A DNA stretch of 64,000 nucleotides. It comes from a bacterium. GTDB taxonomy: Bacteria; Planctomycetota; JAFGQW01. Shown piece after piece: positions 1 to 22,864 of the stretch. Position 1 is the stretch's first letter. Every line of letters begins with the position of its first letter. The position numbers and the translations under genes were made by a program. Under the pieces are notes generated by a model. The model was not told the origin of the DNA. It ran no database searches and was given only the letters and a program-made list of their open reading frames with translations. The DNA lies in assembly GCA_030426805.1 (NCBI GenBank), contig JAUHXU010000006.1, forward strand, positions 199,716-263,715, read 5' to 3'.

Positions 1-888
1 GGCGGGCGGGACGGTCGGCTGGTCTGCGTCGACCTGCGCGCGCACACCGTGTTGTGGCGCAAGCGATTCACCGGCCTCAACGACAACGCGACCGCCCCGT
101 GCCAGTCGGCCGACGCGGTGTTCACCGGCAGCGTCGAGACGGGTCTCTTCCGCCTCGACCCGGTCGACGGGGAACAGCAGTGGCGCGTGCTCGCCAAGGA
201 GGACGAGCACTTCTCGTGGCGCCCGCTTCTCCGCGGCCCGCTCGTCATCGCGGCCGGCGCCCGCGGCGCCGTCGTCGGTGTCATCGCGGAGACCGGTGCG
301 CCGGTGTGGCGCGCGTCGCACGGACCGTTCTCGACGCATCCGGTGGCGAGCGATCGACGTGTGTTCATCGGGCGTCCCTCGGGCGACCTGATTGCGATCG
401 ATCCCACGAGCGGCGAGCTGGTCGGCGTGCAGGACACCGACGGGATTCCGGTCGGCATGCCGGTGATCGCCGACGACGCGCTCGTCGTCGTGACCCGAAC
501 CGGTGCCGTGCACGTGTTCGACGTCGACACGTTCGAGCCGCGATGGCGCGCGCGCGCTGGCGGCGCGACCCGCGCTGCGCCGGTGGTCGCTGACGGCTCG
601 GTCTACGTGACGCTCGGCGACGGTGCGATCGTCCGGCTGCGCCTCTCCGACGGTGCGCGCCTCGCCGAGTCGACCGGCAACGGCACGCCGCTCGCCGGCG
701 GTGCGGTCATCGGTCCCGACGGCCTCTACGTCGGCGGCGAGGACGGTGTCGTGCGGATGTTCGACGGCACATCGCTCGAGGAGTTGTGGGCGACGGACCT
801 CGGTGAGCCGATTCGCGGCGGCCTGGTGCGTTGGGGCGACGCGATCGTCGTCACGACCACCGCCGGCCGGATCTACCTGTTCGAGTAA
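1..888 (+). CDS. PQQ-like beta-propeller repeat protein (BamB-like), 5' partial
   Basis: Open frame runs from the window edge to the stop at 886-888. Repeated 'G.VY..T.DG.L.A.D..TGE..W' blades are typical of PQQ/BamB-type beta-propellers. The ORF track M at 49 is probably internal. Confidence 0.6.
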   Translation, partial: GGRDGRLVCVDLRAHTVLWRKRFTGLNDNATAPCQSADAVFTGSVETGLFRLDPVDGEQQWRVLAKEDEHFSWRPLLRGPLVIAAGARGAVVGVIAETGAPVWRASHGPFSTHPVASDRRVFIGRPSGDLIAIDPTSGELVGVQDTDGIPVGMPVIADDALVVVTRTGAVHVFDVDTFEPRWRARAGGATRAAPVVADGSVYVTLGDGAIVRLRLSDGARLAESTGNGTPLAGGAVIGPDGLYVGGEDGVVRMFDGTSLEELWATDLGEPIRGGLVRWGDAIVVTTTAGRIYLFE

Positions 889-965
889 CGGCATCAAGGA
901 GTGGCCGCGGAGCGCCGATAAGGACCGGGCAAGCGGGGGCAACGCGGGAGCGTAGGAGTAGACGA

Positions 966-2108
966 GTGAAGGGCTTGGGCAAGGACCTCTTCGCGCAGAT
1001 GCGCCGGAGTCGGCAACTCCGCCAGACGCGCAAACACCCGTCCCCGACGGCGTGGGCGACGCTCGGAGAGCGTCACCTCGCTGCCGGCGAGGCCGACCAC
1101 GCGCTCGCGATCGTCGAAGAGGGTCTACAGGACTTTCCGACGAACGATCGGTTGCTCGCGCTACGCCAGGCGATCCAGAAGGAGAACCTGCGTGAACGCG
1201 TCCGCGGCCTGCGGCAGAGCATCCGTCGCCGACCCGACCCGTATCTCTATGCGCGCCTGGCCGACGTCTTTCGCGAACTCGGAGAGCTGAACAAGGCCGA
1301 GCGGATCGCCGAGGAGTGCAAGGGGCGTTTTCCCGGCGACGAGAACCCCTACCTGGTGATCGGCGAGATCCGAGCGGGGCGGTTCCGCAGCGGGCTGATG
1401 GCCCGTGACGGCAAGATCGCGATCGACAACCTCGAGCAGGCGATCCAGATCAACCCCGAGAACTACAAGGCGCGCCTGCAACTCGCCGAGATCTACGCGG
1501 CGCTCGGAGCGAACTCGCGTGCGCTGCCGCACCTGCTGCACCTCGCCGAGGAGACGCCCGAGGACGCCCACCTGCGGGACCTGATCTCGGAGGTCGGGGC
1601 GCGCCCGGTCGAAGAGGGTGACGTCGCGTCGCTGCTGCGCGTCGCGGAGCGCAAGCGCAGCACCCCGTACGACTTCCACGACGCCGACCGCGGCGTCGAC
1701 GAGGAGGAGTCGGTGGCCCCGTCCGTCGATCTCACCGTGCTGCGTCGCGGCACGATGGCGCTGTTCGCGATTCGCGAGGTGGTCGCCCTGTACGTCGCTT
1801 CTGACGAGCACGGCGTCGTCGAGGCCCGGGAGAATCCCCAGGCCTCGGGTCAATCGTTCCGAGAAGCAGCAGCGAAAATTCTCAAGGCCGCCAAAGCCTC
1901 GTCCCGAAAGATGGATATGGGCGGTTTCGCCAAGGGATTCCTCGAGGGGTCCTTCGGGCGGATCGTCCTGCGTCGTACCCACGGCGTCGAAATCGCGCTG
2001 CTCCTCGAGGGGAGCGCGTCTTTCGGAGCGGTGGCGCGGCATGTGGACGCCTTTTTCGATGGCGTCTTCGGACAGAAGCGGAAGGGCTCTCGTGCAGGAC
2101 GTTCTTGA
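966..2108 (+). CDS. TPR-repeat protein with C-terminal roadblock/LC7-like domain
   Basis: GTG at 966 follows an AGGAG-like tract. The N-terminal half is TPR-like helical repeats (LGELNKAERIAEE..., YKARLQLAEIYAALG). The C-terminal ~110 aa resemble a roadblock/LC7 fold (MALFAIREVVALYVASDEHGVVEAR ... EIALLLEGSASFGAVARHVDAFF). The stop overlaps the next gene. Confidence 0.5.
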   Translation: MKGLGKDLFAQMRRSRQLRQTRKHPSPTAWATLGERHLAAGEADHALAIVEEGLQDFPTNDRLLALRQAIQKENLRERVRGLRQSIRRRPDPYLYARLADVFRELGELNKAERIAEECKGRFPGDENPYLVIGEIRAGRFRSGLMARDGKIAIDNLEQAIQINPENYKARLQLAEIYAALGANSRALPHLLHLAEETPEDAHLRDLISEVGARPVEEGDVASLLRVAERKRSTPYDFHDADRGVDEEESVAPSVDLTVLRRGTMALFAIREVVALYVASDEHGVVEARENPQASGQSFREAAAKILKAAKASSRKMDMGGFAKGFLEGSFGRIVLRRTHGVEIALLLEGSASFGAVARHVDAFFDGVFGQKRKGSRAGRS

Positions 2109-2460
2109 CAACCTGAACCAAGAGCTCGGCGTACGAGGCAGTCTCGTCGTCACCGAGGACGGTGTCGTCGCTGCCGCGAGCCTGCTTCGAGAAGAAGACC
2201 GCGATCTGCTCGGGGCGCTCGCAACGGATATTTCGGCGAAGGTACGTTCCGCGCTTCGCGAGGGCGGGATCGAGGGGCACAAGCGCCTCGTGCTCGATGC
2301 GGAGTACGGTCGAATCGTTCTTTACGACTTGGATGTGGCCGCGCTGGTGGTCGTGCTCGACCGCACGATCAACCCAGACGCGACGATGATAGAGATCGAG
2401 AGCGCCGCGGCGCGAATCCGGCGCGTTGGTCGTTTTACCGCTTCGGCGAACGAAGCATAG
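2092..2460 (+). CDS. mglB: Roadblock/LC7 domain protein (MglB-like GTPase-activating protein)
   Basis: GTG at 2092 is in frame and overlaps the upstream stop. Roadblock signature present: GVRGSLVVTEDGVVAASLLREEDRDLLGALATDIS ... GRIVLYDLDVAALVVVLDRTINP. It sits immediately upstream of the MglA-like GTPase, as in mglBA operons. Confidence 0.65.
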   Translation: MQDVLDNLNQELGVRGSLVVTEDGVVAAASLLREEDRDLLGALATDISAKVRSALREGGIEGHKRLVLDAEYGRIVLYDLDVAALVVVLDRTINPDATMIEIESAAARIRRVGRFTASANEA

Positions 2461-2474
2461 GGGGAGTCCCGGCA

Positions 2475-3509
2475 ATGGTGCAGATCAACTTCGCCCTGCG
2501 GGAAGTGAATTGCAAGATCGTCTATTACGGACCGGGGATGAGTGGCAAGACCACCAACCTGGAGATCGTGCACAAGAAAGCTCCGCAGGAGAACAAGGGC
2601 GACCTCACGAGCATCGCGACCGAAGGCGATCGCACGCTGTTCTTCGACTTCATGCCCCTCGACTTGGGTAACGTCGCGGGCATGCGGACGAAGTTCCAGC
2701 TCTACACGGTGCCCGGCCAGGTCTACTACAACTCGACCCGCAAGCTCGTGCTGCAGGGGGCGGACGGCGTGATCTTCGTCGCCGACTCGTCGCGCTCGAA
2801 GCTCAAGGACAACATCGAGAGTTGGAACAACCTCGTCGAGAACCTGCAGGAGTACGGCAAGGACATCAAAGACGTCCCCGTCGTCGTGCAGTGGAACAAG
2901 CGCGACCTGCCGGACGCGATGGACAAGGAAGAGCTCGAAGAGAAGCTCAACCCGCTCGGCGTTCCGACGTTCGAGGCCGTCGCGATCACCGGCGAGGGCG
3001 TCTTCCCGACGCTGAAGGCACTGAGTGCGCTCGTGCTCGAGAGCCTCAACCGTGGCGGCAGCTCGGCGGCGCCGAGTGAGGCAGCCGAACCGGCAGCGCT
3101 CGCGACGCCTGCTGCGGCACCCGCCGCGGCGGCAGCGACCGCGGCACCGGCTCGCACCGGCGGCGGTGGCGGTGCTTCGCGCATCAGCCGTCCGGTCGGC
3201 GGCGCACCGGGTGCCGGTGGCGCACCGGCCGCCGGCGGCGGGATGGCGCCGCCGGAGGGTGGCTCGGGTCGTACGCCGATGCGGCGTGCACCGCAGCCCG
3301 CGGCTCGCCAACCCGCGGCGGCTGCCGCGACGTCGGCACCGCGCCCGCGTTCGGCTCCGCGTCCGCGACCGGCACAGCAGGCACAGCCCGCACCGGCGGC
3401 ATCGTCCGGCAACCGCGGTCTGATGGTCACGATCATCGTCTTGCTCGTGCTGATCGGCGCGGGTGCCGCGGCCTGGGTGTTCCGAGCGCAGCTCGGCCTG
3501 AACTTCTGA
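2475..3509 (+). CDS. mglA: MglA-like Ras-family small GTPase with C-terminal Ala/Pro/Gly-rich linker and predicted C-terminal TM helix
   Basis: RBS GGGGGAG precedes the ATG. The first ~195 aa are close to MglA (MVQINF..REVNCKIVYYGPGMSGKTTNL, TEGDRTLFFDF, YTVPGQV, QWNKRDL). The frame then continues ~150 aa of low-complexity A/P/G and ends ...NRGLMVTIIVLLVLIGAGAAAWVF. The next gene's RBS and ATG follow directly. Confidence 0.8.
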   Translation: MVQINFALREVNCKIVYYGPGMSGKTTNLEIVHKKAPQENKGDLTSIATEGDRTLFFDFMPLDLGNVAGMRTKFQLYTVPGQVYYNSTRKLVLQGADGVIFVADSSRSKLKDNIESWNNLVENLQEYGKDIKDVPVVVQWNKRDLPDAMDKEELEEKLNPLGVPTFEAVAITGEGVFPTLKALSALVLESLNRGGSSAAPSEAAEPAALATPAAAPAAAAATAAPARTGGGGGASRISRPVGGAPGAGGAPAAGGGMAPPEGGSGRTPMRRAPQPAARQPAAAAATSAPRPRSAPRPRPAQQAQPAPAASSGNRGLMVTIIVLLVLIGAGAAAWVFRAQLGLNF

Positions 3510-3540
3510 GCCGACGCCGGCGCGAAAGGGGAACCCGCGA

Positions 3541-4053
3541 ATGGGACAGGCGAAGTCCGACCAGCGTTTGCGCGAAGAGCGCCTGGTCTTCTACCGCGAG
3601 GACATCGCCCGGATCGACGAGATCCTGGGCGACTTCCTCGACGCGAGCGCCGCGAAGTGCGCGCTGCTCGTCGACAAGGAAGGCCACATGGTCACGAAGC
3701 GGGGCAACACCTCGAGCTTCGACCTCGACACGATCTGCGCGCTCGTCGCCGGCAGCTTCGCCGCGACCAAGGAGATGGCGCGCTTGCTCGGCGAGACGGA
3801 GTTCACGGTGATGTTCCACCAGGGCAAGCGGGACAACATCCAGCTCGCGCTGGTCGGTGATCGCACGCTGCTGACCGTGATCTTCGACGACAAGACCACG
3901 CTCGGCATGGTCCGCCTCTACGCCAACGAGACGGCCAAGGAGCTGACCGAGGTCTTCGAGCGTCGCCTCGGCGCACCGCCTCGCGACAGCGAGAACCTCG
4001 ATCAGGGCTTCTCGACCGGCGCACAGGACGCGCTGGACGACATCTTCGGGTAG
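3541..4053 (+). CDS. Roadblock/LC7 domain protein (second MglB/MglC-like)
   Basis: RBS GAAAGGGGAA precedes the ATG at 3541. Roadblock signature present: CALLVDKEGHMVTKRGNTSSFDLDTICALVAGSFAAT...NIQLALVGDRTLLTVIFDDKTTLGMV. Confidence 0.65.
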   Translation: MGQAKSDQRLREERLVFYREDIARIDEILGDFLDASAAKCALLVDKEGHMVTKRGNTSSFDLDTICALVAGSFAATKEMARLLGETEFTVMFHQGKRDNIQLALVGDRTLLTVIFDDKTTLGMVRLYANETAKELTEVFERRLGAPPRDSENLDQGFSTGAQDALDDIFG

Positions 4054-4160
4054 GGCTCCGGCGCCGACTTCGGTCACCGGGTCGCCATCGTCGCGCATTT
4101 GGGCGATGATGTAGGGCCGGCCGCACCCTGCGGTCGGCTACCCGATCCGGAGGTCCCGTC

Positions 4161-4937
4161 ATGAACATCCGTCCTGCCGTCGCGGCCCTCGCGACGCTCC
4201 TCGCCCTCGGTGCCACCGCCACGACCCAGCTGTCGGTCGAGGTGAAAGGCCCCGTGCCGCAGGGGAGCAACGTCTTCACCTACATCGAGGCGACCGTACC
4301 GACCGAGTTGCGCAGCGCGTGTCCCGAGGAGATTCGCGCCGGAAGCCCGATCGGCCCGGTCGTTCGTGGTCCCGGCCCGTGCATCCTGCTCCTCGTCGTC
4401 GTCGGGCCGAACAGCCCGTACACGAACCTCGGTTGGGACGGGCGGGACTCGAACCGGGCGCCGGTCGCCCCCGGCACCTACTACATGAAGATCGCCCACC
4501 GCCCGGTGAACACCAACGTGCCGTGGACCGATCACTGGGTGCCGGTGCACATCACCCCGCAGACCCCGCCGCTCGGCCCGCTGCTGTCGGCCCCGGCGAT
4601 GACGAGCGGCCAGACGTGGCCGATCTCGCTCAGCGATGCGGCGAATCCGTCGGCCTCCTACTGGATGGCCGCGTCGTTCACGACGAACCGCGGGTTCGGT
4701 TTCGGGCCGGTGCACATCGCGCTCGACATCGATCCGCTGTTCCTGCTGTCGTTCCCCGCGCCGAACCCGGCGATCTTCTCGGGCTTCCAGGGCGTGACCG
4801 ACAACGCCGGCAACGCGAGCGCGTCGATCTCGGTGCCGCCGTTTGCGCCGCGCGGCCTCCAGGTGTGCGTGCACGCGATCGTGCAGAACGGTTTGACCGT
4901 CAACGCGACGAACCCCCTCACGCGCGTCGTCCGGTAA
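4161..4937 (+). CDS. Secreted hypothetical protein, paralog family A copy 1
   Basis: Signal peptide (MNIRPAVAALATLLALGATA). Motifs SACPEEIRAGSPIGPVV, PGTYYMKI, YWMAAS, LDIDPLF, GFQGV are shared with 27262..28050 and 28277..29062. Confidence 0.7.
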   Translation: MNIRPAVAALATLLALGATATTQLSVEVKGPVPQGSNVFTYIEATVPTELRSACPEEIRAGSPIGPVVRGPGPCILLLVVVGPNSPYTNLGWDGRDSNRAPVAPGTYYMKIAHRPVNTNVPWTDHWVPVHITPQTPPLGPLLSAPAMTSGQTWPISLSDAANPSASYWMAASFTTNRGFGFGPVHIALDIDPLFLLSFPAPNPAIFSGFQGVTDNAGNASASISVPPFAPRGLQVCVHAIVQNGLTVNATNPLTRVVR

Positions 4938-4984
4938 CGGCCGGCCCCCGTTGACCCCGCCCCGTCGCTTGGTAGCCTGATCCG

Positions 4985-6331
4985 ATGGCGAAGATCATGG
5001 TCGTCGACGACGAGGCGGGGATCCGCGACTCCCTCGAGCTGATCCTGCAATACGAGCGGCATCAGATCGCCAAGTGCGCGGATGCGAAGGAGGCGCTCGC
5101 GACGCTGCCGTCGTTCGAGCCGGACCTCGTCCTGCTCGACGTCGTGATGCCCGGGATGACGGGCATCGAGCTGCTCGAACGCATCCGCGGCGATCGGCCT
5201 GACCTCGACGTGATCATGGTGTCCGGGCACGGCGACGTCGAGACCGCGATCGCGGCGACCGAGCACGGCGCGTTCGACTTCATCGACAAGCCGCTGGAGC
5301 GCGACCGGCTGCTCGTGTCGGTGCGCAACGCGCTGCGCCACAGCCAGATGCGGCGCGAGATCGCGAGTCGCTACCGGATGGTCGGCGAGAGTCCGGCGTT
5401 GCGGGCGATGCTCGCCGACGTGGACCGGGTGGCGCCGAAGGACGCGGGCGTGCTGATCGTCGGCGACAACGGCAGCGGCAAGGAACTCGTCGCCCGCAGG
5501 ATCCACGAGTTGAGCGGACGCAGCGACGGGCCGTTCGTCGACGTGAACTGTGCGGCGATTCCGCGGGATCTGATCGAGAGCGAGCTGTTCGGACACGTGC
5601 AGGGCGCGTTCACCGGCGCCGATCGCGACAAGGCCGGGAAATTCGAGCAGGCCGATCGCGGCACGCTGTTCCTCGACGAGGTCGGCGACATGGGGCTCGA
5701 GAGTCAGGCGAAGGTCCTCCGCGTGCTGCAGGAGCGCAAGGTCGAGCGCGTCGGCGGTAGCGAGACGATGCACTTCGACGTCCGGGTGATCGCGGCGACG
5801 AACAAGGACCTCCAGGAGGAGGTCGCGGAGGGACGATTCCGCGAGGATCTCTACTACCGCCTCAACGTCGTGCCGATCCGCGTGCCCTCGCTGCGCGAGC
5901 GCACCGAGGACATCCCGGCGCTCGTCGACTACTTCCTGCACGATGCGGCGCGCCGCAACGGCGTGCACCCGGCGCCGACGCTGACGGACGCGGCGCTCGC
6001 GGTGCTCCGCGGCCGGGAGTGGCGCGGCAACATCCGCGAGTTGCGCAACGTCGTGGAGCGCTTCGTGATCCTCGGGCCGGCCGACACGCTGGACGCCGGC
6101 GACATCGAGCGCTTTCTCGCGAAGACCGCGGACACCGTGTGGAGCCTGATCGACTCGGTCGAGACGTTCGAGGAGTTCAAAGAGAAGTCCGAAGCGATGT
6201 TCTTCCGTCGCAAGCTCGACGTGAACGGGTGGAACATCAAGCGCACGTCGGACTTGCTCGGCATGCAGCGCTCGAACCTCTACAAGAAGATCGAGCGCTA
6301 CGAACTGCGCAAGCCAGACGCCGACGCGTGA
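4985..6331 (+). CDS. Sigma-54-dependent Fis-family response regulator (NtrC-like)
   Basis: Receiver domain (MVVDDEAGIRDSL...LLDVVMPGMTG). AAA+ sigma54-activator motifs present (GDNGSGKELVARRIH, GAFTGA, ESELFGH). C-terminal Fis-type HTH. Confidence 0.9.
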   Translation: MAKIMVVDDEAGIRDSLELILQYERHQIAKCADAKEALATLPSFEPDLVLLDVVMPGMTGIELLERIRGDRPDLDVIMVSGHGDVETAIAATEHGAFDFIDKPLERDRLLVSVRNALRHSQMRREIASRYRMVGESPALRAMLADVDRVAPKDAGVLIVGDNGSGKELVARRIHELSGRSDGPFVDVNCAAIPRDLIESELFGHVQGAFTGADRDKAGKFEQADRGTLFLDEVGDMGLESQAKVLRVLQERKVERVGGSETMHFDVRVIAATNKDLQEEVAEGRFREDLYYRLNVVPIRVPSLRERTEDIPALVDYFLHDAARRNGVHPAPTLTDAALAVLRGREWRGNIRELRNVVERFVILGPADTLDAGDIERFLAKTADTVWSLIDSVETFEEFKEKSEAMFFRRKLDVNGWNIKRTSDLLGMQRSNLYKKIERYELRKPDADA

Positions 6332-6360
6332 TCGCGCGGCGCCATTGAGGAGCCCCGTCG

Positions 6361-8124
6361 ATGCGTCCGATCGCTCTCGTTCTGTTCGTCCTGGCGATCG
6401 CAGCTGGTGCGACCGCGTTCGTGTTGCTCTCGGGGGACGGGCCGGCGACGGTCGGCCCGGCACGTGGCGACACCCAGGAGCCATCCGACCCGGGGCGCGC
6501 GTCGCCGGCCCCGCCGGCCGAGAAGAAAGCGGCCGAGAAGACCGCCCCGCAGCCGCATGGGCCGGACACTGCGGCGCCGGAGACGGCGGTCGCCCCGGTG
6601 CGGGTCGTGTCGCGTGCGACGTCGAAGGCGATCGCCGGCGCGACGCTCGCGCACGGGGACCGGACGTGGCGCACCGACGCCGACGGCCGCGCGTCGGCAC
6701 CGATCGGCGTGTCGGTCCGCGTCGAGGCGCCGGGGTTCGTGACCGGCATCGCGCGCGTGACGACTCGCGACGGTGTCGGCCGCATCGCATTGCCGGCGGC
6801 CGCGACGATCACCGGCATCGTCCGCGATCCGACGACGACCGCGGTCGCGGGCGTCTCGGTGCGAGTCGCGATCGCGACCGAGTCACCGCTACCCGATCCG
6901 GAGGGGTTTGCCGTGATCGTCCCGCCGATCGGCGTCGTCACCGGAGCCGACGGCCGATTCGAGGTGAGCGCACCCAGCGCGGTGCCGCTCGTCGTGGACG
7001 CACTCGGCGGCTTCGGCGGTCCGGCTCGCTATGGGGCGACCCTCGCCCTCGGCCCCGGTGAGCGACGGGAGATCCAGCTGCCGTTTCGGCCGGCGGGCGT
7101 GCTGCAGGGGACCGTCCTCGGGGCCGGCGGCGCACCGGTCGCGGGCGCGACGATCACCCTCGGCGGGACGGCGGACGTCGCCCTGTCGGTCGACGGCTAC
7201 TCGCGAACCGCCGAGACCGCCGACGACGGTGGGTTCGCGATCGATGGGGTTCCGCTCGGCGCGTGGCGACTCGTCGCGTCCCCACCGGCCGGTGCCCGAT
7301 TCGCGGCGGCGGTCGCGACCGTTCGAATCGACAAGCACGGAGAGGTCGCGACCTCACAAATACGCCTCGAAACCGGGCGGACGATTCGCGGCCGCGTGCT
7401 CGGTCCGCGTGGGGCGCCGGCGGGTGGCATTCCCGTCGAGGGGTCGTGGCCGGGCGGGCTCACCGCGCGGAGCGCCGCCGACGGGACCTTCGCGGTCGGT
7501 CCGGTGCCCTCGGGCGCACACCGCGTGCGGGCGCTCGGCACCGGCGAACTGGGCAACAGCCGATGGACCGACGTCGCCGCGGACGACACGACGGTCGAGC
7601 TACGCCTGACGGTCGCCGGGAACGTCGCGATCGCCGTGACGGGCCCCGACGGCAAGCCGGTCGCCGCGACCGTCGAACTGCGGTCGGTCGATTGGGGGCT
7701 CGACGAGGCCGCGACGACGCAAGCGCGCGAGTTGCGCGACGGCTCGGCGCGGTTCGGACCGATCGCCGAGGGCCGTTACATCGCGATCGTCCGCGACCAG
7801 AAACGCTACGCGCTCGACGGCCCGTTCGCGGTGACCGCCGGTGCCGAGACGACGCGCACGATCGTGCTCCGCGACGGTGCGCACGCGACGATCGTCGTGA
7901 AACAGCCTGCGGGTGCGCCGCCGATCGAGCAGCCGGTCGCGAAGATCGTGTGCGACGGCATCCAACTCGCGCGCGGGCCGGTCGGTGCGTTCAAGGCGTT
8001 TCAGGTGCCGGCGAGTCGCCGTGTCGCGATCCGCGTCGAGTATCGACAGGGTGGCGTCGACAAGCACATCGAGCACCGGTTGTCGCTGCCGAACGGGACG
8101 AACGAGTTCGTCGAGGTGCCGTGA
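6361..8124 (+). CDS. Membrane-anchored protein with carboxypeptidase-regulatory-like (CarboxypepD_reg) repeats
   Basis: N-terminal TM/signal (IALVLFVLAIAAGATAFVLL). Repeated 'G.V.D....PVAGA.V.L' beta-sandwich modules. Paralogous to 17145..19292. Confidence 0.6.
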   Translation: MRPIALVLFVLAIAAGATAFVLLSGDGPATVGPARGDTQEPSDPGRASPAPPAEKKAAEKTAPQPHGPDTAAPETAVAPVRVVSRATSKAIAGATLAHGDRTWRTDADGRASAPIGVSVRVEAPGFVTGIARVTTRDGVGRIALPAAATITGIVRDPTTTAVAGVSVRVAIATESPLPDPEGFAVIVPPIGVVTGADGRFEVSAPSAVPLVVDALGGFGGPARYGATLALGPGERREIQLPFRPAGVLQGTVLGAGGAPVAGATITLGGTADVALSVDGYSRTAETADDGGFAIDGVPLGAWRLVASPPAGARFAAAVATVRIDKHGEVATSQIRLETGRTIRGRVLGPRGAPAGGIPVEGSWPGGLTARSAADGTFAVGPVPSGAHRVRALGTGELGNSRWTDVAADDTTVELRLTVAGNVAIAVTGPDGKPVAATVELRSVDWGLDEAATTQARELRDGSARFGPIAEGRYIAIVRDQKRYALDGPFAVTAGAETTRTIVLRDGAHATIVVKQPAGAPPIEQPVAKIVCDGIQLARGPVGAFKAFQVPASRRVAIRVEYRQGGVDKHIEHRLSLPNGTNEFVEVP

Positions 8125-8342
8125 ACGAGGCGGGCGGAGGAGCGAGCAGAAGAAAGAGTCACGGGCCCAGGAAGGGCATCAAATAATACTCTCATTCAAG
8201 TCCGCAAAGGGAAGAGAATGTGATAGGGAACCGGTTTCACATACTATTTGCCTGGAACCCGTGACTTCGTTGATTCGCTGTCTGGGCGAGGCGCGCGACG
8301 GTCAGGTCGACCGTCACGCAGACGCCCTCTTGGCCGTGAGGA

Positions 8343-9368
8343 CTACCGAACGGGCAGCTTGATCGGGTGACCGACCGCGAGGTCGGTCGCGGCTGCCTCG
8401 GTCAGGCCATTGAGTGCGAGCACTTCGCGGAACTTGCGTTCCATCTTGTTCTCGCGCAGCAAGCCGTAGACCGTCTGGCCCTTGCCGAGCCGGATCACGC
8501 GGACACCGCTCTTCGCAGCATCCGGCTTGCGACCGGCGTCCGGCTTCGTGCCGTGTGTGACGAGAGACGGCTTGATCGTCGCCTTCGCCTTCGACTCGAA
8601 CGCCGGCACGACGATCGTCATGCCGGGCCGCATCCGGGACGCGGGCACGTCGAGATTGGCGTCGACCAGTCGCTTGAAGTACTTGCCGTCCCCGTAGACG
8701 CGCTCGGCGATCTTCCAGTAGCTGTCGTCCTTGCGGACGACGTAGCTGGTGGCCGCCGGTTCGCCCGTGGCGCCTGGGTCGAGCCAGTTCGGCACCGCGT
8801 TCGATGCGACCCGGCCCTTGCCGATCCCGCGAGCGTCGATGGGAGCGGGATCATTGTCGATCCCACTCCCTCGCCGCACGGTCGACGCGTTCGGCACGGT
8901 GCCCTCGCTCCCTGAGCGCCCGGAAACGCCGCCGTGACGGCCCGATTCGGGCCCCGACGGGATTCCCCCGGGCGTAGCAGAGGGCGGGTTCGTCGGTCGG
9001 CCGCCACCGCCCGCGGCGGCGCGTCCGTCCGAACCCGACGCGTTCTCGCTTCCGCCGTCGCGAACGACGGGGGAGTCGAGGTCGGCGTGGTCTCCCTCCA
9101 GACCATCGCCTTTCAATGCACCTCCGGTCGCGTCGCCGTAGCCGGCGCCGCCGTCAGAGGTGCCTGCGTCCGTGCCGCCCGTGGGGCCGCCGACCGCTGC
9201 TGAGCCATTCGCTGAGCCATCAACGCCGCGATCGCTCGCGTTTGCGCTCTTGGCCGCTTCGCTTTCATCCGTCTCACCGGGACCGCCGGTGGTCAACGCA
9301 ATCGTGACGATGACTACGATCGTCGCCACGACAACGAAGACGAGGATCTTTTCGATTCGGTCCATCAA
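8343..9368 (-). CDS. LysM domain peptidoglycan-binding protein, membrane anchored
   Basis: N-terminal TM (ILVFVVVATIVVIVTIALT) and a Gly/Ser/Asp-rich linker. Two LysM-like modules (YVVRKDDSYWKIAERVYGDGKYFKRLVDAN...GMTIVVP and IRLGKGQTVYGLLRE...HPIKLP). Confidence 0.7.
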   Translation of the reverse strand: MMDRIEKILVFVVVATIVVIVTIALTTGGPGETDESEAAKSANASDRGVDGSANGSAAVGGPTGGTDAGTSDGGAGYGDATGGALKGDGLEGDHADLDSPVVRDGGSENASGSDGRAAAGGGGRPTNPPSATPGGIPSGPESGRHGGVSGRSGSEGTVPNASTVRRGSGIDNDPAPIDARGIGKGRVASNAVPNWLDPGATGEPAATSYVVRKDDSYWKIAERVYGDGKYFKRLVDANLDVPASRMRPGMTIVVPAFESKAKATIKPSLVTHGTKPDAGRKPDAAKSGVRVIRLGKGQTVYGLLRENKMERKFREVLALNGLTEAAATDLAVGHPIKLPVR

Positions 9369-9543
9369 CCGCCTCCCACATGGACCGGACGGCTTCTGTC
9401 GCCTTCAGAAACCCAAAGAAGACCGCCCTCGGTGAATCGCGAGAAAGGATAGGGATCCATATCTTTCGCGTCAAGACCGATACGACACAATATTTCGTGC
9501 ATCGATTCGTCGTGCGTGCGCATGGGTCGCATGAAGGCAGCGC

Positions 9544-9587
9544 ACGTTTCATGTCGTCACGACGACGTCGAAGCGCGAAACCCGGGG
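9544..9587 (-). terminator. Putative hairpin terminators downstream of the ICMT-family gene
   Basis: Palindrome GTCGTCAC/GACGAC at 9544-9557. Stem-loop CGAAAC-N10-GTTTCG at 9565-9587, just 3' of the minus-strand gene ending at 9637. Confidence 0.3.
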
Positions 9588-9636
9588 TGGCGTTTCGGGC
9601 GGAGAGCGGGGGAAAACCGCGTTCGAACCGGCGCGA

Positions 9637-10215
9637 TCAGCGCCAGATGAACTTGCTGCCGATGATCAGCAGACCGAGCGCGCACAGCGCCGCGGTCTCC
9701 AACTCGCTGTTGTGCACGACGAGGTCGAACCGCCACTTGCGGTTCTCCGCGTGCTTGAAGCGAGTGAGACGGGGGACCAGGTCGGGCACGCTGCGGATGT
9801 AGTCCTCCGCGTCGTCGCCGAAGCGGCGGCGGAGGCGGTCGTACTCGATGCGCTTCTTCTTCGGAAAGTAGTAGAGGAAGTAGCACGCGAGTCCGAACGG
9901 CAGCAGTCCGCACAAGACCCAGATGCTCACCTCGCCCGGATGCGTCGCCGAGGCGGCGAACCCGAACATGATGAGCAGGGTGCCGAGGTAGAGGGGGTTC
10001 TTCACGTGCGCGTAGGGGCCCGAGGTGACCAGTCGCTGGTTCTTCTCGAGGTGCCCGGTGCCCCAGATACGGATGATCTCCCCGACGGTGATCAGCACGA
10101 CGCCCGCGGCGAAGAACCACGGGTGGGGTCGCGAGATCAAGGCGAAGGCGATCAGCGCGAGGATCGCCGTGTAGACGATCGCACGACGCCAAGTCAGTTT
10201 CTTCGAAGCTGGCAC
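9637..10215 (-). CDS. Isoprenylcysteine carboxyl methyltransferase (ICMT)/phospholipid methyltransferase family membrane protein
   Basis: Start taken at GTG 10215 (VPASKKL...). Multi-TM protein with the family motif HLVTSGPYAHVRNPLYLG. The upstream part of the longer ORF (to 10551) is Arg/Pro-rich junk. Confidence 0.65.
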   Translation of the reverse strand: MPASKKLTWRRAIVYTAILALIAFALISRPHPWFFAAGVVLITVGEIIRIWGTGHLEKNQRLVTSGPYAHVKNPLYLGTLLIMFGFAASATHPGEVSIWVLCGLLPFGLACYFLYYFPKKKRIEYDRLRRRFGDDAEDYIRSVPDLVPRLTRFKHAENRKWRFDLVVHNSELETAALCALGLLIIGSKFIWR

Positions 10216-10511
10216 GTGAGCCCGTTCCTCCCGCTGCGGACCCACGAAGGGGCCCGTCCTCGGCGGCCGTCTCAATCCCGGCCGTGATCGGTTCGTCCCG
10301 CTCTCGGGACAGACTTCCGGGACCGTCTTCACCACGGCCGTCGGAAGAGTGGTGGGCGTCGGAAGCGGAGAACGACTCCGCTCGGTTTCCAAGGGCGGTG
10401 TTCTTATACACACGAGAATCGCCGTTGGCAAGCCGCACGTCGGCCGGCTCCGGCGGTTGACAGTCCGGCGGTGACGCCGTACGATTCGCGAGGTCTCGCG
10501 CGAGGTGCCCC

Positions 10512-11129
10512 ATGCTCCGATCCCCCCCGTTCGCCACGGTCTCGTACGCACCGTCGTATCCGCTGTGGCTCGTGCTCGCGGCGGCGTTGCTCGTCGCTTC
10601 CGGCTGCGGCTCCTCGACCCTCGACGACTTCGAGCCCGAACTCGCGAAGGACGCGACCGGCAAGGTCGCGCCGATCACGATCGAGCTCGTCGACTACCGC
10701 AGCAAGCCCCCGCTCTACTTCACGTTGTCGAACGCGTCGAACGAGCGCGCCCAGCGCGCGAAGCAGGCCGGCCGACTGCCGATGACCCACAAGGTCGTCG
10801 ACGACGAGACGGTCGGGCAGGTCGTCGCGTTCATGCGCCAGCGCGACTACTTCGAGTACGCGCGCCCGGTCGGCAACACCGCGACCGAGCTGCCCGACAG
10901 CACGCGTCGTACGCTGCTGCTGATGCGCGGCGGCGAGCCGACGCTTCGGATGGTGGAGCTGCACAAGATGGGCCTGCAGCCGGGTGGCCGCGAGCAGGTG
11001 CAGGCGATCAGCGACATGAGCCGGGTGATCCGCGCGGTGAGCAACCAGAATCTGGCGCTTCGCGTCGACTCGAGCGGCAAGACGATCTCCGACTTGCTCA
11101 ACCAACCCGGTCTGCGCGGGGGGCGCTGA
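10512..11129 (+). CDS. Hypothetical secreted/lipoprotein
   Basis: ATG at 10512. Signal peptide ends ...LLVASGCGSS (Cys after the signal). Coding-like composition. No recognisable domain. Confidence 0.5.
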   Translation: MLRSPPFATVSYAPSYPLWLVLAAALLVASGCGSSTLDDFEPELAKDATGKVAPITIELVDYRSKPPLYFTLSNASNERAQRAKQAGRLPMTHKVVDDETVGQVVAFMRQRDYFEYARPVGNTATELPDSTRRTLLLMRGGEPTLRMVELHKMGLQPGGREQVQAISDMSRVIRAVSNQNLALRVDSSGKTISDLLNQPGLRGGR

Positions 11130-11130
11130 G

Positions 11131-11933
11131 TTGCCCCGGGACGCCGCGACCCCGTCCGGTGCCCTGGTCGTCATCCCCGCTCGCTTCGCCTCGACCCGCC
11201 TGCCCGCGAAGCTGCTCCTCGCCGAGACCGGCAAGCCGCTGGTCGTGCACACGGCCGACCGAGCCGCGGCGGCGTCGCACGTCGGCCGGGTCGTCGTCGC
11301 GACCGACGACGACCGGATCGCCGAGGCGGTCCGCGCGCACGGCTACGAGGCGGTCATGACCTCGCCGTCGTGTGCTTCCGGCACCGACCGGGTCGCCGAG
11401 GTCGCGCGCGACAGCGACGCCGACGTCGTCGTCAACGTCCAGGGCGACGAGCCGGAGGTCGACCCCGGGCTGATCGACGCGCTGATCGACGCCACCGAAG
11501 CCGACCCGTCGGCCGACCTGTTCACCGCGTCCGTCCCGTTCGAGGACGTCGCGCAAGCCGACGACCCGGCCGCGGTGAAGGTCGTGGTGGATTCCAGCGG
11601 CCGAGCACTCTATTTTTCTCGGGCCCGCATCCCGTTCCACCGGGACGCCGATGCGGTCCCGCCCGAACGCCGACACGATGCGATCGCTCCGCGGTTGCAC
11701 GTCGGCATCTACGCGTTTCGTCGCCCCGCGCTGCTCGAGTTCGCCGAGTGGACGCCGTCGGCGCTGGAACGGACCGAAGGCCTCGAGCAGTTGCGCGCGT
11801 TGGACAACGGCATGGCGATTCACGTCGTGGCCTGGCACGCGGGACATGCGGGGATCGACACGCGTGAGGATTACGACCTCTTCATGGCCCGGCACGGATG
11901 TGTGCGGGCGGGGGCGTCTGAGAGGGAGGATGC

Positions 11934-11937
<4 letters not shown>
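11131..11937 (+). CDS. kdsB: 3-deoxy-manno-octulosonate cytidylyltransferase (CMP-Kdo synthetase)
   Basis: KdsB motifs [24 protein letters not shown] and a conserved C-terminal region. TTG at 11131 overlaps the upstream stop. ATGA overlap with pyrG. Confidence 0.85.
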
Positions 11938-13569
<1,632 letters not shown>

Positions 13570-13595
<26 letters not shown>

Positions 13596-14946
13596 CACGC
13601 TGCGCCGGTCGTGCCTCGTCCTCGCGGTGGTGCTCGCGTGCATCGCCGCGCCGGCCTCGTCCCAGCAAGGCGGTGACGACACCCCGGCAGCGCGCGCAGC
13701 CGAGCGGCGCGCGAAACTCGAGAAGGCCGACGTGTCGGGCCGTCTCGTCCTCGCGACGTGGTGTCGCGACCGCGGGCTCGCGGCGATCGCGGCCGAGCTG
13801 TGTCGGGAAGTCCTCGCCCTCGACAAGGACAACGTCCCCGCCCACCGCGCGCTCGGGCACGTCTTCGTCGACGGTGCATGGGACGAGCGTCCGGCTGCGC
13901 GCGACGCCGAGCGCGGTCGCCTCGAAGCGCTGCTCCGTCGCGCCGGCCTCGTGCGGTATCGCGTCGGCTGGGAGACGCCGGACGGCGCGCGGCGTCGCGC
14001 GCGCGGTGAGGAATACGTCGCCGGACAGTGGCGTCGTGGCGATGCGATCAAGGCCGCCAAGGGCTGGGTGCGCATCGACGACGAGTGGGTCGAGCCCGGC
14101 GAGGCGCTCGGGCGCACCGCGGCACAACGGCTGACCGCGCTCGCCGGCACGGACTACGGCCACCGCGTGGGCCGACAGGTGATCGTCGTGTCGACGCTCC
14201 CCGACGATGCGGTCGCCGCGTTGGTCGAAGCGCTCGATCACGCGGTGGGGGACACGCTCGTGATGCTCGGGGAGCGGGGCGAGCGCGCGATCTTCGCGCC
14301 GCAGGTGCGCGTCGTGATCGTGACGAACGCCGCCCACACCAATGCGCTCCAGGTGTGGATCCCGTACGAGGCACCGCGTGCGCCGCGTTGGGGGCGGGCC
14401 GCTCCCGACGGCACCGGCCTTCGCATGACGCGCGACCGCACGGGTCGTCCGGTGTTGCAGATCGTCGTCGACGGCGACTGGCAGAGCATCGCCCCGCGCG
14501 TGCGCTCGCTCGCCGTCTACGGTTGCGCGCGACTGACGACGGCGCGCTACGCCGGGGGCGAGGACGCGCCGTTCTGGATCGCCGAGGGGATCGCCGGCGC
14601 CGTGCAGGGAATGCGCGCGAAGGGTGCGTTCGCGACGACCGCGGGCGACAACCCCGCGATGCCGGTCGATGTGCCGGCGGTCCGTTCGCCCGACGCGCTG
14701 CGGTCCGCCGTGCGTCGCGCGAAGCCGCGCCCGTTCGCGACGTTGATGGCGCTCCGTTCCGGTGACGCGACGCTCGACGACGTCCTGCACGCGACGGCCG
14801 CCGCGACCTGGATGCTCGGCGCGAAGCCCCGCGCACTCGGCCGTTGCGTCCGCGCGAGCGGTGACGGCAAGTCGCCCGACCTCGACGCCCTTTTCGGCCC
14901 GCTCGCCGACCTCGACACCGCATTCACCGCCTGGCTCGGCGGCTAG
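13570..14946 (+). CDS. Hypothetical secreted protein
   Basis: ATG at 13570 overlaps the pyrG 3' end. Signal peptide ([16 protein letters not shown]). No domain recognised. Long open frame with coding-like periodicity. Confidence 0.5.
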
Positions 14947-15059
14947 CGACTCGCTGCGCCGTATCTGCGGGCGCTCGGCGCGACGACTCTGCACCCGATC
15001 CCGGTCATTGGCGGCGCATCAGGTGCACCTCGGTGCAACATCGGCCCTCGATTGCGTGC

Positions 15060-15599
15060 TCAGAGGTGCGGGCGGGCGAGCGCGAAGGCGGCGATCGTCA
15101 TGCCGTCCCAGATCGTGCGGGCGTCGATCGCGGCGGCGACTTCGTCGGGCGTGTAGCGGACGACTTCGATCTGTTCGGTCGCTTCGGGTGTGGAGCCGAC
15201 GTCGCGCAGGCCGCGTGCGACGTAGACGTGGCACATCTCGTCGGCGACGCCGTTGTAGGGGGCGAACGCGCCGACCTCGCGCAACTCGTCGGCCTCGACG
15301 CCGCACTCCTCGCGCAGCTCACGCACCGCGTTCGCGTCGACGTCGCCGCCGACCGGAACGCCGCCGGCCGGAAACTCGTCGCTCATGCGCTCGAGCAGGT
15401 AGCGATACTGTCGGACCAGGAGCACCCGACCGTCGGCGTCGACCGGGACGATCATCGTCGAGCCGCCGGTCTGGACGTAGAAGTAGTCCGTCACGTCGCC
15501 CGACGGCAGCCGGTAGCGGTCGTGCATCATGCGCCAATACGGACACGTGAACGACACGTCGCGGGAGACGGTCTCCCACGCGTCACCCGGCTCGGGCAT
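15060..15599 (-). CDS. NUDIX hydrolase
   Basis: Nudix box (GGVPVGGDVDANAVRELREECGVE). ATG at 15599 overlaps the upstream stop (ATGA). Confidence 0.8.
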   Translation of the reverse strand: MPEPGDAWETVSRDVSFTCPYWRMMHDRYRLPSGDVTDYFYVQTGGSTMIVPVDADGRVLLVRQYRYLLERMSDEFPAGGVPVGGDVDANAVRELREECGVEADELREVGAFAPYNGVADEMCHVYVARGLRDVGSTPEATEQIEVVRYTPDEVAAAIDARTIWDGMTIAAFALARPHL

Positions 15600-17032
15600 C
15601 AGACGTCCTTCAGGAACTTGCCGCTCGCGTTGACGAAGTCGGTCCATTTCTGGCCGATCTCGTCGATGTCGTGGTCCTCGAACGCGCGGCGAAAGTGGGA
15701 CAAGCCGGTCTCGCCGTTGAGTTCCATCTCGACGTAGCGGAACAGCGCCGGGCGATACTTGCCGCCCTCCTCGTTCCAGAGGAACCAGAACAGCGACCAC
15801 GCCTCCGCGTAGAAGAGCGCACCCGCCGCGGCGCGACCCGAGTCGGAATCGGACGAGCCGACCTTCTTGCGGCAGAGGCGATCCAGCGCGGACTTCGTCG
15901 GGATGCGTACGAGTTCCTCGAACGGGAACCAGTGGTCATACGCGGCGTTCTTCAGCCCCTTCATCCGCTCGCGCAGCTTGTGCTGGAACGAGTATTCGTA
16001 GGACCGCGATCCATCCTCGTTCGTGATCGCCTTGCGCTCGGTGCCGGAGAAGAACTCGGCGATCCCCTCCTGGAACCAGTGGAGCTGGCAACGCGTGCGC
16101 TTGGGCGTGTAGAACCAGATCAGTTGGTGCACCAACTCGTGGACCATCTTGTTGATCGCGAAGCGCTCCGACTCGGCGATGCCCTCGTAGTAGACGATCC
16201 GGTTGTTCGCCGGCATGAAGTAGGCGGCGGCTCCCTGCGGAATCTCGACGCCCATGTCGAGGTGGTATTTCTCGAACGTGTACTTCTCCTCGAAGAAGAT
16301 CACCGGCAGCACCGACAGCTTGCCCTCGTGCGACACACCCTCGAGCGGCTTGAGGTCGAGCCCCTTGAAGGTGTCGCGGAAGTGCTTCGCGCCGGCCTGC
16401 AGCATCTCGCCGAGCGTGCGCAGCTTGAACTGGTCGGTGGAGCGGTTGCCGCGCTCCTTCGCGATCACGAACGGCGGATAGCGCCCGAAGACGAGGTCGA
16501 ACTTCGCGAGGTGCTTGTCCGCCTTCAACTCCTCGACGATCTCGTCGGCGGCGGCGAACCACGGGTCGTCCAGGTCACCGCTCGCGGATGCGGCGCGTTC
16601 CTTCTCCGCCCGTTTGGCCATCGCGAGTTCGTCGGCGCGGAGCCAGCCGAGCTTCGCGAAGCGTTTGATCGGGCCGGTGTAGCGCGTGTAGCCGAGCTTC
16701 GCGCGAGCTTCCGCGTGGTTCGGATCGATCTTGATCACACGCTTGTAGATGCGCTGGGCGAGCTTCTCCTCCGACTTGAAGCCGGTCTTCTCGCACCACG
16801 CGCCGAGCGCGAACCAGTCCGCCGCGCTGTCCGATGCCTTCGCCTTGGCCGCGAGGCTCTGGTAGGTATCGGCGTCGGACGCGGGGGCGCCGGACTCCGG
16901 TGCGCCGGTCTTCTCGGTCGGCGTCGATTCGGTCGCCTTCTTCGTCGGCTTGTCGCCGCATGCGGTCACGGCGAACGACGTCGTGACGACCGCGATCAGT
17001 GCGAGACGGTGGAGGGTGCGCGGGTGGTTCAT
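15599..17032 (-). CDS. DUF1570-like lipoprotein with HExxH motif (putative metallopeptidase)
   Basis: Lipoprotein signal (SFAVTACGDK). HELVHQLIWF zinc-binding-like motif. Paralogous to 52171..53622. This family is typical of Planctomycetes. Confidence 0.7.
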   Translation of the reverse strand: MNHPRTLHRLALIAVVTTSFAVTACGDKPTKKATESTPTEKTGAPESGAPASDADTYQSLAAKAKASDSAADWFALGAWCEKTGFKSEEKLAQRIYKRVIKIDPNHAEARAKLGYTRYTGPIKRFAKLGWLRADELAMAKRAEKERAASASGDLDDPWFAAADEIVEELKADKHLAKFDLVFGRYPPFVIAKERGNRSTDQFKLRTLGEMLQAGAKHFRDTFKGLDLKPLEGVSHEGKLSVLPVIFFEEKYTFEKYHLDMGVEIPQGAAAYFMPANNRIVYYEGIAESERFAINKMVHELVHQLIWFYTPKRTRCQLHWFQEGIAEFFSGTERKAITNEDGSRSYEYSFQHKLRERMKGLKNAAYDHWFPFEELVRIPTKSALDRLCRKKVGSSDSDSGRAAAGALFYAEAWSLFWFLWNEEGGKYRPALFRYVEMELNGETGLSHFRRAFEDHDIDEIGQKWTDFVNASGKFLKDV

Positions 17033-17144
17033 GGGATCCCTGCCAGCGGGTTGAGGGTCGAGGGTCGGCGCAAATGGTAATACAAATCCGACCGCCTCGG
17101 GGTATCTTTGAACTCGTCGCCCCGCCCGGCCGACGACGTCTCAC

Positions 17145-20170: not shown

Positions 20171-20267
20171 CGGAAGTGCTGCTCAGCGGGTTCGCCTTCG
20201 ATTCTACCACTCGACGGGCGGGGACGAACGCGGTAGCGTTGTCGACCGGAGCCGGGAGAGGCGAACG

Positions 20268-20966: not shown

Positions 20967-21329
20967 CGGCGTGCGTTCGACGACGCGGTTGAGCAGCCGG
21001 TAGACCTCGAGGGCTTCGAGCGGCTTGCGAAGCAGGCCGACGACGCCGAGGCGCTTCTTGTCCTTGAGGAACGGCTTGAGCTGGTGCTCGTCGGCAACGA
21101 CGATGTTCATCAGCGAGACGCCTTGCAGTGCGATCGTGCCGAGCAAGCCGACCGCGGCTTCGGCGTTCGGCTCGTCCTCCACGATCAGCCCGTCGTAGCC
21201 GTGCTCGGCGAGCTCGTGGATCGCCTCGTCGAACGGAACGGCGTCGATCTCGAGGTCCGGGAAGTGTTGGGCCGCGACCGCGAGCACGTCGCGGGTCGAC
21301 CGGGTGCCTTCGACGAACAGCAATCTCAT
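20943..21329 (-). CDS. Single-domain response-regulator receiver-like protein (atypical)
   Basis: CheY-like fold pattern (MRLLFVEG...GLIVEDEPN...LLRKPLE). The N-terminal acidic pair is replaced by EG. The 3' end overlaps the convergent redoxin gene by ~24 nt. Confidence 0.45.
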   Translation of the reverse strand: MRLLFVEGTRSTRDVLAVAAQHFPDLEIDAVPFDEAIHELAEHGYDGLIVEDEPNAEAAVGLLGTIALQGVSLMNIVVADEHQLKPFLKDKKRLGVVGLLRKPLEALEVYRLLNRVVERTPSADALAG

Positions 21330-22802: not shown

Positions 22803-22864
22803 CGTCTCCTCCTCCGCGCCAACACCGCCCCGGAGCGCTCTTCGTCGTCGGCGCTTGACAATAG

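Follow-up and report, generated by a model that had tools for sequence, protein, structure and literature searches.

The window analysed here, 64,000 nucleotides of contig JAUHXU010000006.1 in the Planctomycetota assembly GCA_030426805.1, carries near its left end an open reading frame (ORF) of 344 amino acids with an ATG start, at 2475..3509 on the forward strand. It encodes a protein of three parts: a G domain of the MglA type, a low-complexity linker and a hydrophobic terminal helix predicted to span the membrane. The gene lies fourth in a tight cassette of five on the same strand, the products of which are, in order, a PATAN-TPR-beta-propeller protein, a protein combining tetratricopeptide repeats (TPR) with a Roadblock domain, a Roadblock protein, the MglA with its transmembrane (TM) helix, and MglB. 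The parts of the MglA gene are as follows.

2461..2466, forward strand: ribosome-binding site GGGGAG, 8 nucleotides 5' of the ATG (from the sequence)
2475..3059, forward strand: MglA G domain, residues 1-195 (phmmer against PDB; AlphaFold2 with Foldseek)
3060..3419, forward strand: disordered, basic Ala/Pro/Gly-rich linker, residues 196-315 (composition; coil in AlphaFold2)
3420..3482, forward strand: predicted C-terminal TM helix (tail anchor), residues 316-336, LMVTIIVLLVLIGAGAAAWVF (hydropathy; helix in AlphaFold2)
3483..3509, forward strand: tail RAQLGLNF after the TM helix, predicted to be extracytoplasmic, and the TGA stop codon at 3507-3509 (from the sequence)

GGGGAG follows the Roadblock gene's stop codon without a gap, a sign of a tight operon, and the next gene begins with an ATG at 3541, 31 nucleotides past the ORF, with a ribosome-binding site AAGGGG in between. 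A preliminary description, made from the DNA letters alone, had noted that the frame runs on from the G domain through the Ala/Pro/Gly-rich stretch to a hydrophobic helix, with a ribosome-binding site and the ATG at 3541 just after, and this is what the sequence contains. The same description had cited A/T-rich codons (ATC, ATT, TTG) in the TM segment as an argument for selection, and here it was mistaken. The segment starts ATG GTC ACG ATC ATC GTC TTG CTC GTG CTG ATC GGC, with ATC three times, TTG once and ATT not at all; its GC content is 65%, against 70% for the window, and at third codon positions (GC3) it reaches 0.905, compared with 0.908 in the G domain and 0.80-0.94 in neighbouring genes. 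Given the absence of ATT and a GC content near that of the window, the coding signal of the TM segment is its high GC3 and not A/T-rich codons. Codon-position GC in the linker (0.84/0.88/0.70) is uninformative on coding, since Ala, Pro and Gly codons dominate and make it GC-rich at all positions, so that composition alone is no proof of coding. Two antisense ORFs, 2322..3311 and 2726..3436 on the reverse strand (329 and 236 amino acids), overlap the MglA gene; without the GC3 signature, they are spurious ORFs of the kind that DNA with 70% GC typically yields. A scan of positions 1-5000 of the window for promoters and terminators returned nothing above background.

The N-terminal 195 residues had been assigned to an MglA-type small GTPase on the strength of four motifs, all of which are present at the places quoted, and comparison with known structures bears the assignment out. 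The P-loop GPGMSGKT occupies residues 19-26, with G19, G21, G24, K25 and T26 invariant among 86 homologues; TEGDRTLFFDF (residues 49-59) holds D52-R53-T54, the intrinsic arginine finger R53 being collinear with R53 of Myxococcus xanthus MglA; and TVPGQ (T78-V79-P80-G81-Q82) and NKRD lie at residues 78-82 and 141-144. Among the 66 to 86 homologues compared, G1, R53-T54, TVPGQ and NKRD do not vary. A phmmer search of all PDB sequences matched the protein to MglA of M. xanthus (5ymx_A, 4.7e-71) and of Thermus thermophilus (3t12_A, 1.1e-70), with ungapped alignments over residues 3-197 and G-domain identities of 56% and 58% respectively, the next class (Arl, Arf, Rab and Ras) reaching only about 1e-7. 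Pfam matches at E<=0.01 were to Arf, Gtr1_RagA, Ras, Roc, DO-GTPase2 and GTP_EFTU. The AlphaFold2 model, built on an alignment of 86 diverse sequences, has a predicted local distance difference test score (pLDDT) of 84-98 over residues 1-195 and a mean of 79 for the run; an alignment of 66 close homologues was too shallow and therefore left the N-terminal half below 50. Foldseek placed the model closest to M. xanthus MglA bound to GTPgammaS (6h17; TM-score 0.96, root-mean-square deviation 1.3 Å over 192 columns); the 14 best matches in PDB are all MglA, with TM-scores of 0.89-0.96, and Ras, Rab and Arf follow at E of about 1e-11.

Group-1 MglA proteins are distinguished by an intrinsic arginine next to the G2 threonine, by TVPGQ and by a coupled MglB gene (PMC4316618). 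The 344-residue protein has the arginine, G1, TVPGQ, the coupling to MglB and the fold. It exceeds in length, as do its relatives (294-480 residues), the operational limit of <=240 residues that the survey set for MglA; this limit is a sampling rule and not a biological criterion.

Residues 316-336 are the sole strongly hydrophobic stretch of the protein and end 8 residues before the stop. The Kyte-Doolittle mean over 19 residues is 2.59 in the helix, against a maximum of 1.30 in residues 1-300, found in the G-domain core. The helix has a low hydrophobic moment (0.19) and an apparent free energy of insertion estimated, in sum, at about -2.9 kcal/mol. In the AlphaFold2 model a helix at residues 314-340 (pLDDT 76-94) follows a linker modelled as coil (pLDDT 43-65). 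Neither an N-terminal signal peptide nor a second TM segment was found in the 344 residues, and the N-terminus aligns to cytosolic MglA from residue 3. The single C-terminal TM segment of the preliminary description is accordingly supported by hydropathy and agrees with the modelled helix. The linker comprises 40 Ala, 21 Pro, 18 Gly, 12 Arg and 3 Glu among its residues, for a net charge of +9, and there is no Cys anywhere in residues 196-344. Prenylation (CAAX, CC or CXC) was considered and ruled out, as the C-terminus reads ...RAQLGLNF and the want of Cys in the tail excludes lipidation of the eukaryotic type; a sorting signal of the PEP-CTERM or LPXTG kind was likewise ruled out, since the protein has neither a signal peptide at its N-terminus nor a signature motif.

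Relatives with the same tail are numerous. A protein-cluster search of 5.8 billion clusters was evaluated for its 120 best matches, which are 316-401 residues long and nearly all metagenomic; those with names are metagenome-assembled genomes (MAGs) of Planctomycetota. In 119 of these clusters a hydrophobic helix stands 2-10 residues from the C-terminus, and among relatives its mean hydropathy over 19 residues is 2.0-3.65. The exception, P0068, has a scrambled C-terminus that looks like a frameshift. A genome scan with one genome per GTDB species returned 260 relatives, and the best 80 of the 260 loci were analysed: all are uncultured MAGs, nearly all labelled Planctomycetota, with other phylum labels on L015 and L027 and the labels 'uncultured bacterium' or 'bacterium' on L026, L052, L053 and L060. 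The ORF is cut by the contig end at 13 of the 80 loci, and of the 67 complete ORFs 66 have the helix at the terminus; the remaining one (L059, 6001-6624) ends at 207 amino acids, 75 nucleotides from the end of its contig. One relative (L004, 6001-7443) is a 480-residue version with a much longer linker and the helix still terminal. The closest relatives are only about 64-67% identical over the full protein, and the neighbours at protein level indicate a lineage of uncultured Planctomycetota. A C-terminal helix that recurs in 119 of 120 clusters and 66 of 67 ORFs is far beyond chance, and sequence comparison across many uncultured Planctomycetota indicates that tail and anchor are kept, and hence selected. 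It was on orthologues keeping the tail that the earlier claim of a selected coding extension, as opposed to read-through, depended, and on that evidence the claim holds. The large conserved family had gone unmentioned there, as had the five-gene cassette.

Across the 120 cluster sequences the linker is 96-183 residues long (median 115), consists to 61% of Ala, Pro and Gly and has a median net charge of +16. In the closest subclade (P0001-P0008) the variable linker still keeps the motifs RPVGG, PAxGGA, APDMRxGRG and GRPQPxRPRPK, which are partly kept in the window protein as well (nucleotides 3184..3330). Such motifs could be docking sites for proteins that read proline-rich sequences. The helix is more uniform, with the consensus G-L-V-V-(G/A)-L-(T/S)-V-L-L-x-A-A-A-A-G-V-V-(Y/W)-F-F. 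Its core, A-A-x-A-G (A in 115, A in 110 and G in 103 of the 120), is a small-residue packing motif and is followed distally by an aromatic Y/W-F-F belt; the closest relatives' C-termini end F-R/H-G/A-E/Q-L/F-G-L. Because the helix is conserved beyond what a passive anchor needs, specific helix-helix packing is suggested, and it may pack against itself, as a dimer, or against the helix of a partner. The eight residues before the helix carry on average a net charge of +1.6 (consensus K/R-K/R-G-G) and those after it a net charge of 0, a family-wide distribution that fits the positive-inside rule and a tail anchor with its N-terminus in the cytoplasm.

The other genes of the cassette, and those that follow it, are these.

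1..888, forward strand: 3' end of a large gene crossing the left edge of the window, PQQ/BamB-like beta-propeller part (Pfam PQQ_2, 1.6e-23)
831..2108, forward strand: TPR protein with a C-terminal Roadblock-like domain (TPR_19 1.2e-12, TPR_14 1.6e-12)
2059..2460, forward strand: small Roadblock/LC7 protein of 122-133 amino acids, starting at ATG 2059 or GTG 2092 (Robl_LC7 4.4e-10)
3541..4053, forward strand: MglB orthologue of 170 amino acids (full-length match to 6izw_B of M. xanthus, 2.8e-29, and to 1j3w_A, 6.8e-23)
4161..4937, forward strand: hypothetical secreted protein of 258 amino acids, its N-terminus resembling a signal peptide, unmatched to any family
4985..6331, forward strand: NtrC/NtrX-type sigma-54 response regulator, adjacent only in L001 and L002

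The frame at 1..888 is open from the first base and is the continuation of a gene rather than a separate one. In relatives the full protein has about 1050-1080 amino acids and consists of DUF4388/PATAN, TPR and a PQQ-like beta-propeller; the orthologue at L001:1089-4331 matches DUF4388 (8e-16), TPR and PQQ_2 (6.5e-30), and the same PATAN-TPR-propeller architecture is found at L085:3185-6337, where the cassette recurs. PATAN proteins have been linked earlier with MglA and MglB genes (PMC4316618). The TPR-Roadblock gene may start at TTG 831, GTG 966 or ATG 999. Pfam is blind to the Roadblock domain in the window copy; the C-terminal 120 residues or so nonetheless align with the upstream-Roadblock family in hhalign (96.4% probability, E 1e-9), and a homologue in L081 carries a precomputed Robl_LC7 match. 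A PEP_TPR_lipo identity for this protein was rejected, its 34 bits against the 312 required reflecting generic TPR similarity only. The family profile of the small Roadblock protein at 2059..2460 matches Roadblock proteins in PDB (7yh1_D, 1e-15), dynein LC7, CvnB5 and, weakly, LAMTOR2 (E 2e-3); at E<=0.01 no MglB was among its PDB matches, nor any chain named MglB or MglC. Judged by this profile, the protein is of the generic LC7 type and not MglB-like. The cassette has three Roadblock-fold modules for one GTPase.

Of the 80 loci, 77 have the upstream Roadblock gene and 76 the TPR-Roadblock gene; the large PATAN gene is likewise present in 76. MglB is found in 66, which are all those where the contig extends far enough. 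Genes past MglB are conserved only in the two closest relatives. Elsewhere in the window, 6361..8124 and 17145..19292 (both forward strand) encode large proteins of CarboxypepD_reg repeats, common in planctomycetotal surface proteins, and 32551..35934 (reverse strand) encodes a Ser/Thr protein kinase of 1126 amino acids with TPR repeats, adjoined by genes for an ECF-type sigma factor (36055..36654, forward strand) and an SPFH/Band-7 protein (31550..32452, reverse strand); the kinase, sigma factor and Band-7 group is ordinary signalling content of planctomycete style. An Rfam scan of positions 1..64000 at gathering thresholds gave no rRNA, tRNA-like or riboswitch matches.

The protein belongs to a wider family of long-tailed MglAs. 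In a HMMER pass over 1.84 billion cluster representatives 2,284 proteins scored E<=1e-30. The top 150 were classed by their C-termini; because the query included the low-complexity linker, this ranking is biased to long tails. The 150 are 207-936 residues long, only P0259 (207) being shorter than 240, and 144 of them have both G1 and TVPGQ. Their endings fall into the following classes.

TM tail anchor: 50 of 150
TM segment, then 17-194 further residues: 12 of 150
basic cluster with a short amphipathic motif (KKKGFFKRLFGLK, KKFSLFGWLKRLGRK, QKGFLSKFFNKD): at least 34 of 150
other endings: 54 of 150

Where residues continue past the hydrophobic segment they are acidic or coiled-coil-like (P0146, P0153, P0170, P0187, P0193, P0205, P0208, P0222, P0224, P0242), which suggests a spanning rather than peripheral segment where the following tail is short; some of these proteins may be bitopic, with an extracytoplasmic segment. 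Six others (P0227, P0244, P0249, P0258, P0261, P0268) end in a conserved beta-rich motif (...VVLKLRICV.., ..LRIRLDIQV..) and an acidic tail, and this ending may be a small C-terminal domain. A neighbour-joining tree of the G domains unites all 63 TM forms in a single clade, which counts 92 sequences, and groups the amphipathic forms elsewhere; since tail type tracks the G-domain tree, it is inherited with the G domain. The relatives with amphipathic endings (P0174-P0257) occur in other phyla. Among them are L081:8001-9227 and L083:5989-7416, one of them from candidate division Zixibacteria; these two genes sit in a homologous cassette of PatA_N, TPR-Roadblock, Roadblock, long MglA and MglB, and directly 3' of both cassettes lie pilB, pilT, pilC and a PilS-like kinase gene. 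Amphipathic endings of the ...GFFKRLFG kind are close counterparts of KKGFLKRLFGG, the membrane-targeting sequence of Escherichia coli MinD.

Among characterised systems the nearest is MglA-MglB of M. xanthus and T. thermophilus (5ymx, 6h17, 3t12, 6izw), with which the window protein has in common the G domain, R53, Q82 and an adjacent MglB. Canonical MglA is a soluble protein of about 195 residues that binds the poles reversibly, whereas the window protein has 149 more residues and a TM helix; and the gene order in the window is Roadblock-mglA-mglB, together with two extra Roadblock-fold genes and the PATAN-TPR-propeller gene. SofG, a long MglA paralogue of M. xanthus, is set apart by its description: no TM helix is reported in its extensions, it is not known to be under the control of MglB, and its partners are bactofilins. 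SofG likewise has an MglA G domain, the intrinsic arginine and extensions (PMC4316618). In proteins with tails of the MinD/FtsA type, as in the sister MglAs, a nucleotide switch is also held at the membrane by the extreme C-terminus after a spacer; there, however, an amphipathic helix binds reversibly, while the hydrophobic 21-residue segment of the window protein predicts permanent insertion. Actinobacterial conservons (CvnA-D) also combine a GTPase of the MglA family with Roadblock in a membrane-associated complex (PMC4316618), but their link to the membrane is the CvnA kinase and not the GTPase, and Group 2 has GTPGQ and Thr for the arginine finger. A conservon CvnD or Group-2 MglA identity is ruled out by TVPGQ and R53 and by a cassette free of histidine-kinase and DUF742 genes.

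The eukaryotic Ras, Rho and Rab proteins have the same layout, a G domain, a variable and often polybasic spacer and a C-terminal anchor, in which the spacer varies and the anchor is kept. Their anchor is a prenyl lipid, whereas here it is a TM helix, from which extraction of the kind performed by guanine nucleotide dissociation inhibitors is not possible; the two are analogous and not homologous. The membrane-insertion extensions of Rab have been argued to have arisen during eukaryogenesis (PMC10933270). Miro and SR-beta are further small-GTPase domains held by a single TM helix, but SR-beta is Arf-like with an N-terminal anchor and Miro is a mitochondrial protein with two GTPase domains, and neither has specific homology beyond the Ras-superfamily fold. 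Public labels of relatives of the window protein read 'GTPase domain-containing protein', 'ATP/GTP-binding protein' or 'SRP receptor subunit beta'; the last, a JGI label on many relatives, was rejected as an identity, there being no SRPRB Pfam match at E<=0.01 and the anchor being C-terminal. Rag-Ragulator likewise combines a small GTPase held at the membrane with several modules of Roadblock fold, but there a lipidated scaffold anchors soluble GTPases and here the GTPase itself carries the anchor.

We propose that the conserved cassette encodes an MglA/MglB switch tethered to the membrane, a reading to which we give a probability of about 0.72; the architecture taken alone (G domain, linker, anchor) we regard as very probable. 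The five genes would be co-transcribed, and the helix would insert in the inner membrane with the N-terminus inside, tethering the G domain at the cytoplasmic face. MglB (3541..4053) would act as the GTPase-activating protein (GAP) by way of R53 and Q82, the intrinsic machinery also used in Thermus and Myxococcus, and the small Roadblock and TPR-Roadblock pair may form a second regulatory platform, as co-GAP, guanine nucleotide exchange factor (GEF) or scaffold. The GTP form would recruit cytosolic effectors of the TPR/PATAN type to the membrane. By a polymer estimate, independent of any model, the linker might let the G domain reach a shell of about 10 nm below the membrane, or up to about 45 nm if fully extended. 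The preliminary description had held that a tethered MglA would be fixed rather than freely diffusing. The tether stands as a prediction and the fixity does not, for a single-pass anchor on a leash of about 120 residues still diffuses in the plane of the membrane; tethering removes the cytosolic pool, not mobility. A GTPase confined to the membrane would owe its spatial control to local switching by GAP and GEF and to capture in the plane, not to exchange between cytosol and pole. The output may be the positioning or activation of an envelope machine, for example type IV pili, as the sister cassettes and the biology of MglA and PATAN proteins suggest; PATAN-domain proteins have been tied in cyanobacteria to the control of type IV pili and in Myxococcus to MglA. 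Argued from such analogies, a pilus or polarity output is a tentative assignment, somewhat short of an even chance.

Several observations weigh against this proposal. The TM status is drawn from hydropathy and AlphaFold2, and in the window protein itself the flanks of the helix are balanced, with R315 before it and R337 after it, so that the positive-inside pattern appears only at the level of the family. The match of the 3541..4053 product to the MglB model NF052242 (8.3e-31) sits below the NCBIfam equivalog cutoff, at 107 against 200 bits. The roles given to the two extra Roadblock modules are guesses and the link to pili is one of analogy, and neither the 64-kb window nor the +-6 kb around each of the 80 Planctomycetota loci contains type IV pilus genes.

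This last result speaks for the alternative that survives best, in which the architecture is the same and the cassette proteins form a platform for another membrane process; examples would be budding or division without FtsZ, the invagination or remodelling of membranes, and the biogenesis of the envelope. Motility genes are missing from the same surroundings as those for pili. The largest cassette protein joins an alpha-solenoid (TPR) to a beta-propeller, a combination that is suggestive beside a membrane-bound small GTPase; it is, however, a common one, and its order here is the reverse of that in planctomycetal membrane-coat-like proteins. Three Roadblock-fold modules by one GTPase also recall Rag-Ragulator platforms (PMC3747258). 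Against these points stand the homologous cassettes of other phyla, contiguous with pilB-pilT-pilC-pilS, and the reported links of PATAN proteins to cyanobacterial pilus control and to Myxococcus MglA, and on balance we consider another process unlikely. A bolder version is less probable still: that constitutively membrane-bound MglAs, whether TM or MinD-like, are a large overlooked branch of the Ras-like switches of prokaryotes, the bacterial counterpart of the eukaryotic plan of G domain, hypervariable spacer and anchor, and that in Planctomycetota a membrane-resident platform of the GTPase, its three Roadblock-fold partners and the alpha-solenoid/beta-propeller protein organises membrane identity or remodelling (budding, invagination, uptake) and not merely pilus polarity.

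There is little to recommend the view that the terminal helix does not span the membrane and is an element of protein-protein contact or oligomerisation, leaving the protein cytosolic or peripheral. A-A-x-A-G is a helix-packing motif that could act outside a bilayer, and the insertion of tail-anchored proteins in bacteria is poorly understood. Yet hydropathies of 2.0-3.65 with a moment as low as 0.19 are typical of a bilayer-spanning helix, the aromatic belt is distal and the basic cluster proximal, and some relatives continue beyond the hydrophobic segment. Sister clades, moreover, carry a MinD-like membrane-targeting motif in its place, and this exchange argues that membrane binding is the selected function; a non-spanning helix is accordingly very improbable. 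That a frameshift, assembly error or missed stop near residue 195 has fused a 22-kDa MglA to non-coding or out-of-frame sequence is effectively refuted, for although linker codon-position GC does not discriminate, high-GC DNA yields long spurious ORFs such as the two antisense ones and isolated relatives look broken (the C-terminus of P0068, the 207 residues of L059), the architecture is shared by independent clusters and by species-level assemblies from dozens of projects, in which a common assembly artefact is implausible, the terminal helix, its K/R-K/R-G-G flank and A-A-x-A-G core are kept while linkers vary, the TM segment has its GC3 of 0.905, and the distance to the MglB gene that follows is kept as well.

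The membrane-tethered MglA of this cassette is a widespread architectural variant of Group-1 MglA and not a new kind of system, and it is apparently uncharacterised. A full-text literature search, to which subscription journals were mostly closed, found no described MglA with a TM helix or membrane anchor, in agreement with the preliminary description, whose author knew of no characterised example. The 2014 survey of prokaryotic MglA by Wuichet and Sogaard-Andersen dropped sequences of more than 240 residues (PMC4316618), and as 149 of the 150 best representatives in our HMMER pass are longer, the diversity of the family has probably been underestimated.

MglA is the model for Ras-like polarity in bacteria, and current models need a soluble GDP form that moves between the poles. 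An MglA locked to the membrane would have to break symmetry by local activation or inactivation and capture in the plane, and a tethered MglA is in this sense a natural experiment on the contribution of the cytosolic pool. The cassette names candidate partners for such a switch in the PATAN-TPR-propeller, TPR-Roadblock, Roadblock and MglB proteins. More widely, small GTPases of bacteria have repeatedly acquired a C-terminal spacer and a membrane anchor, a layout usually called a eukaryotic invention (PMC10933270).

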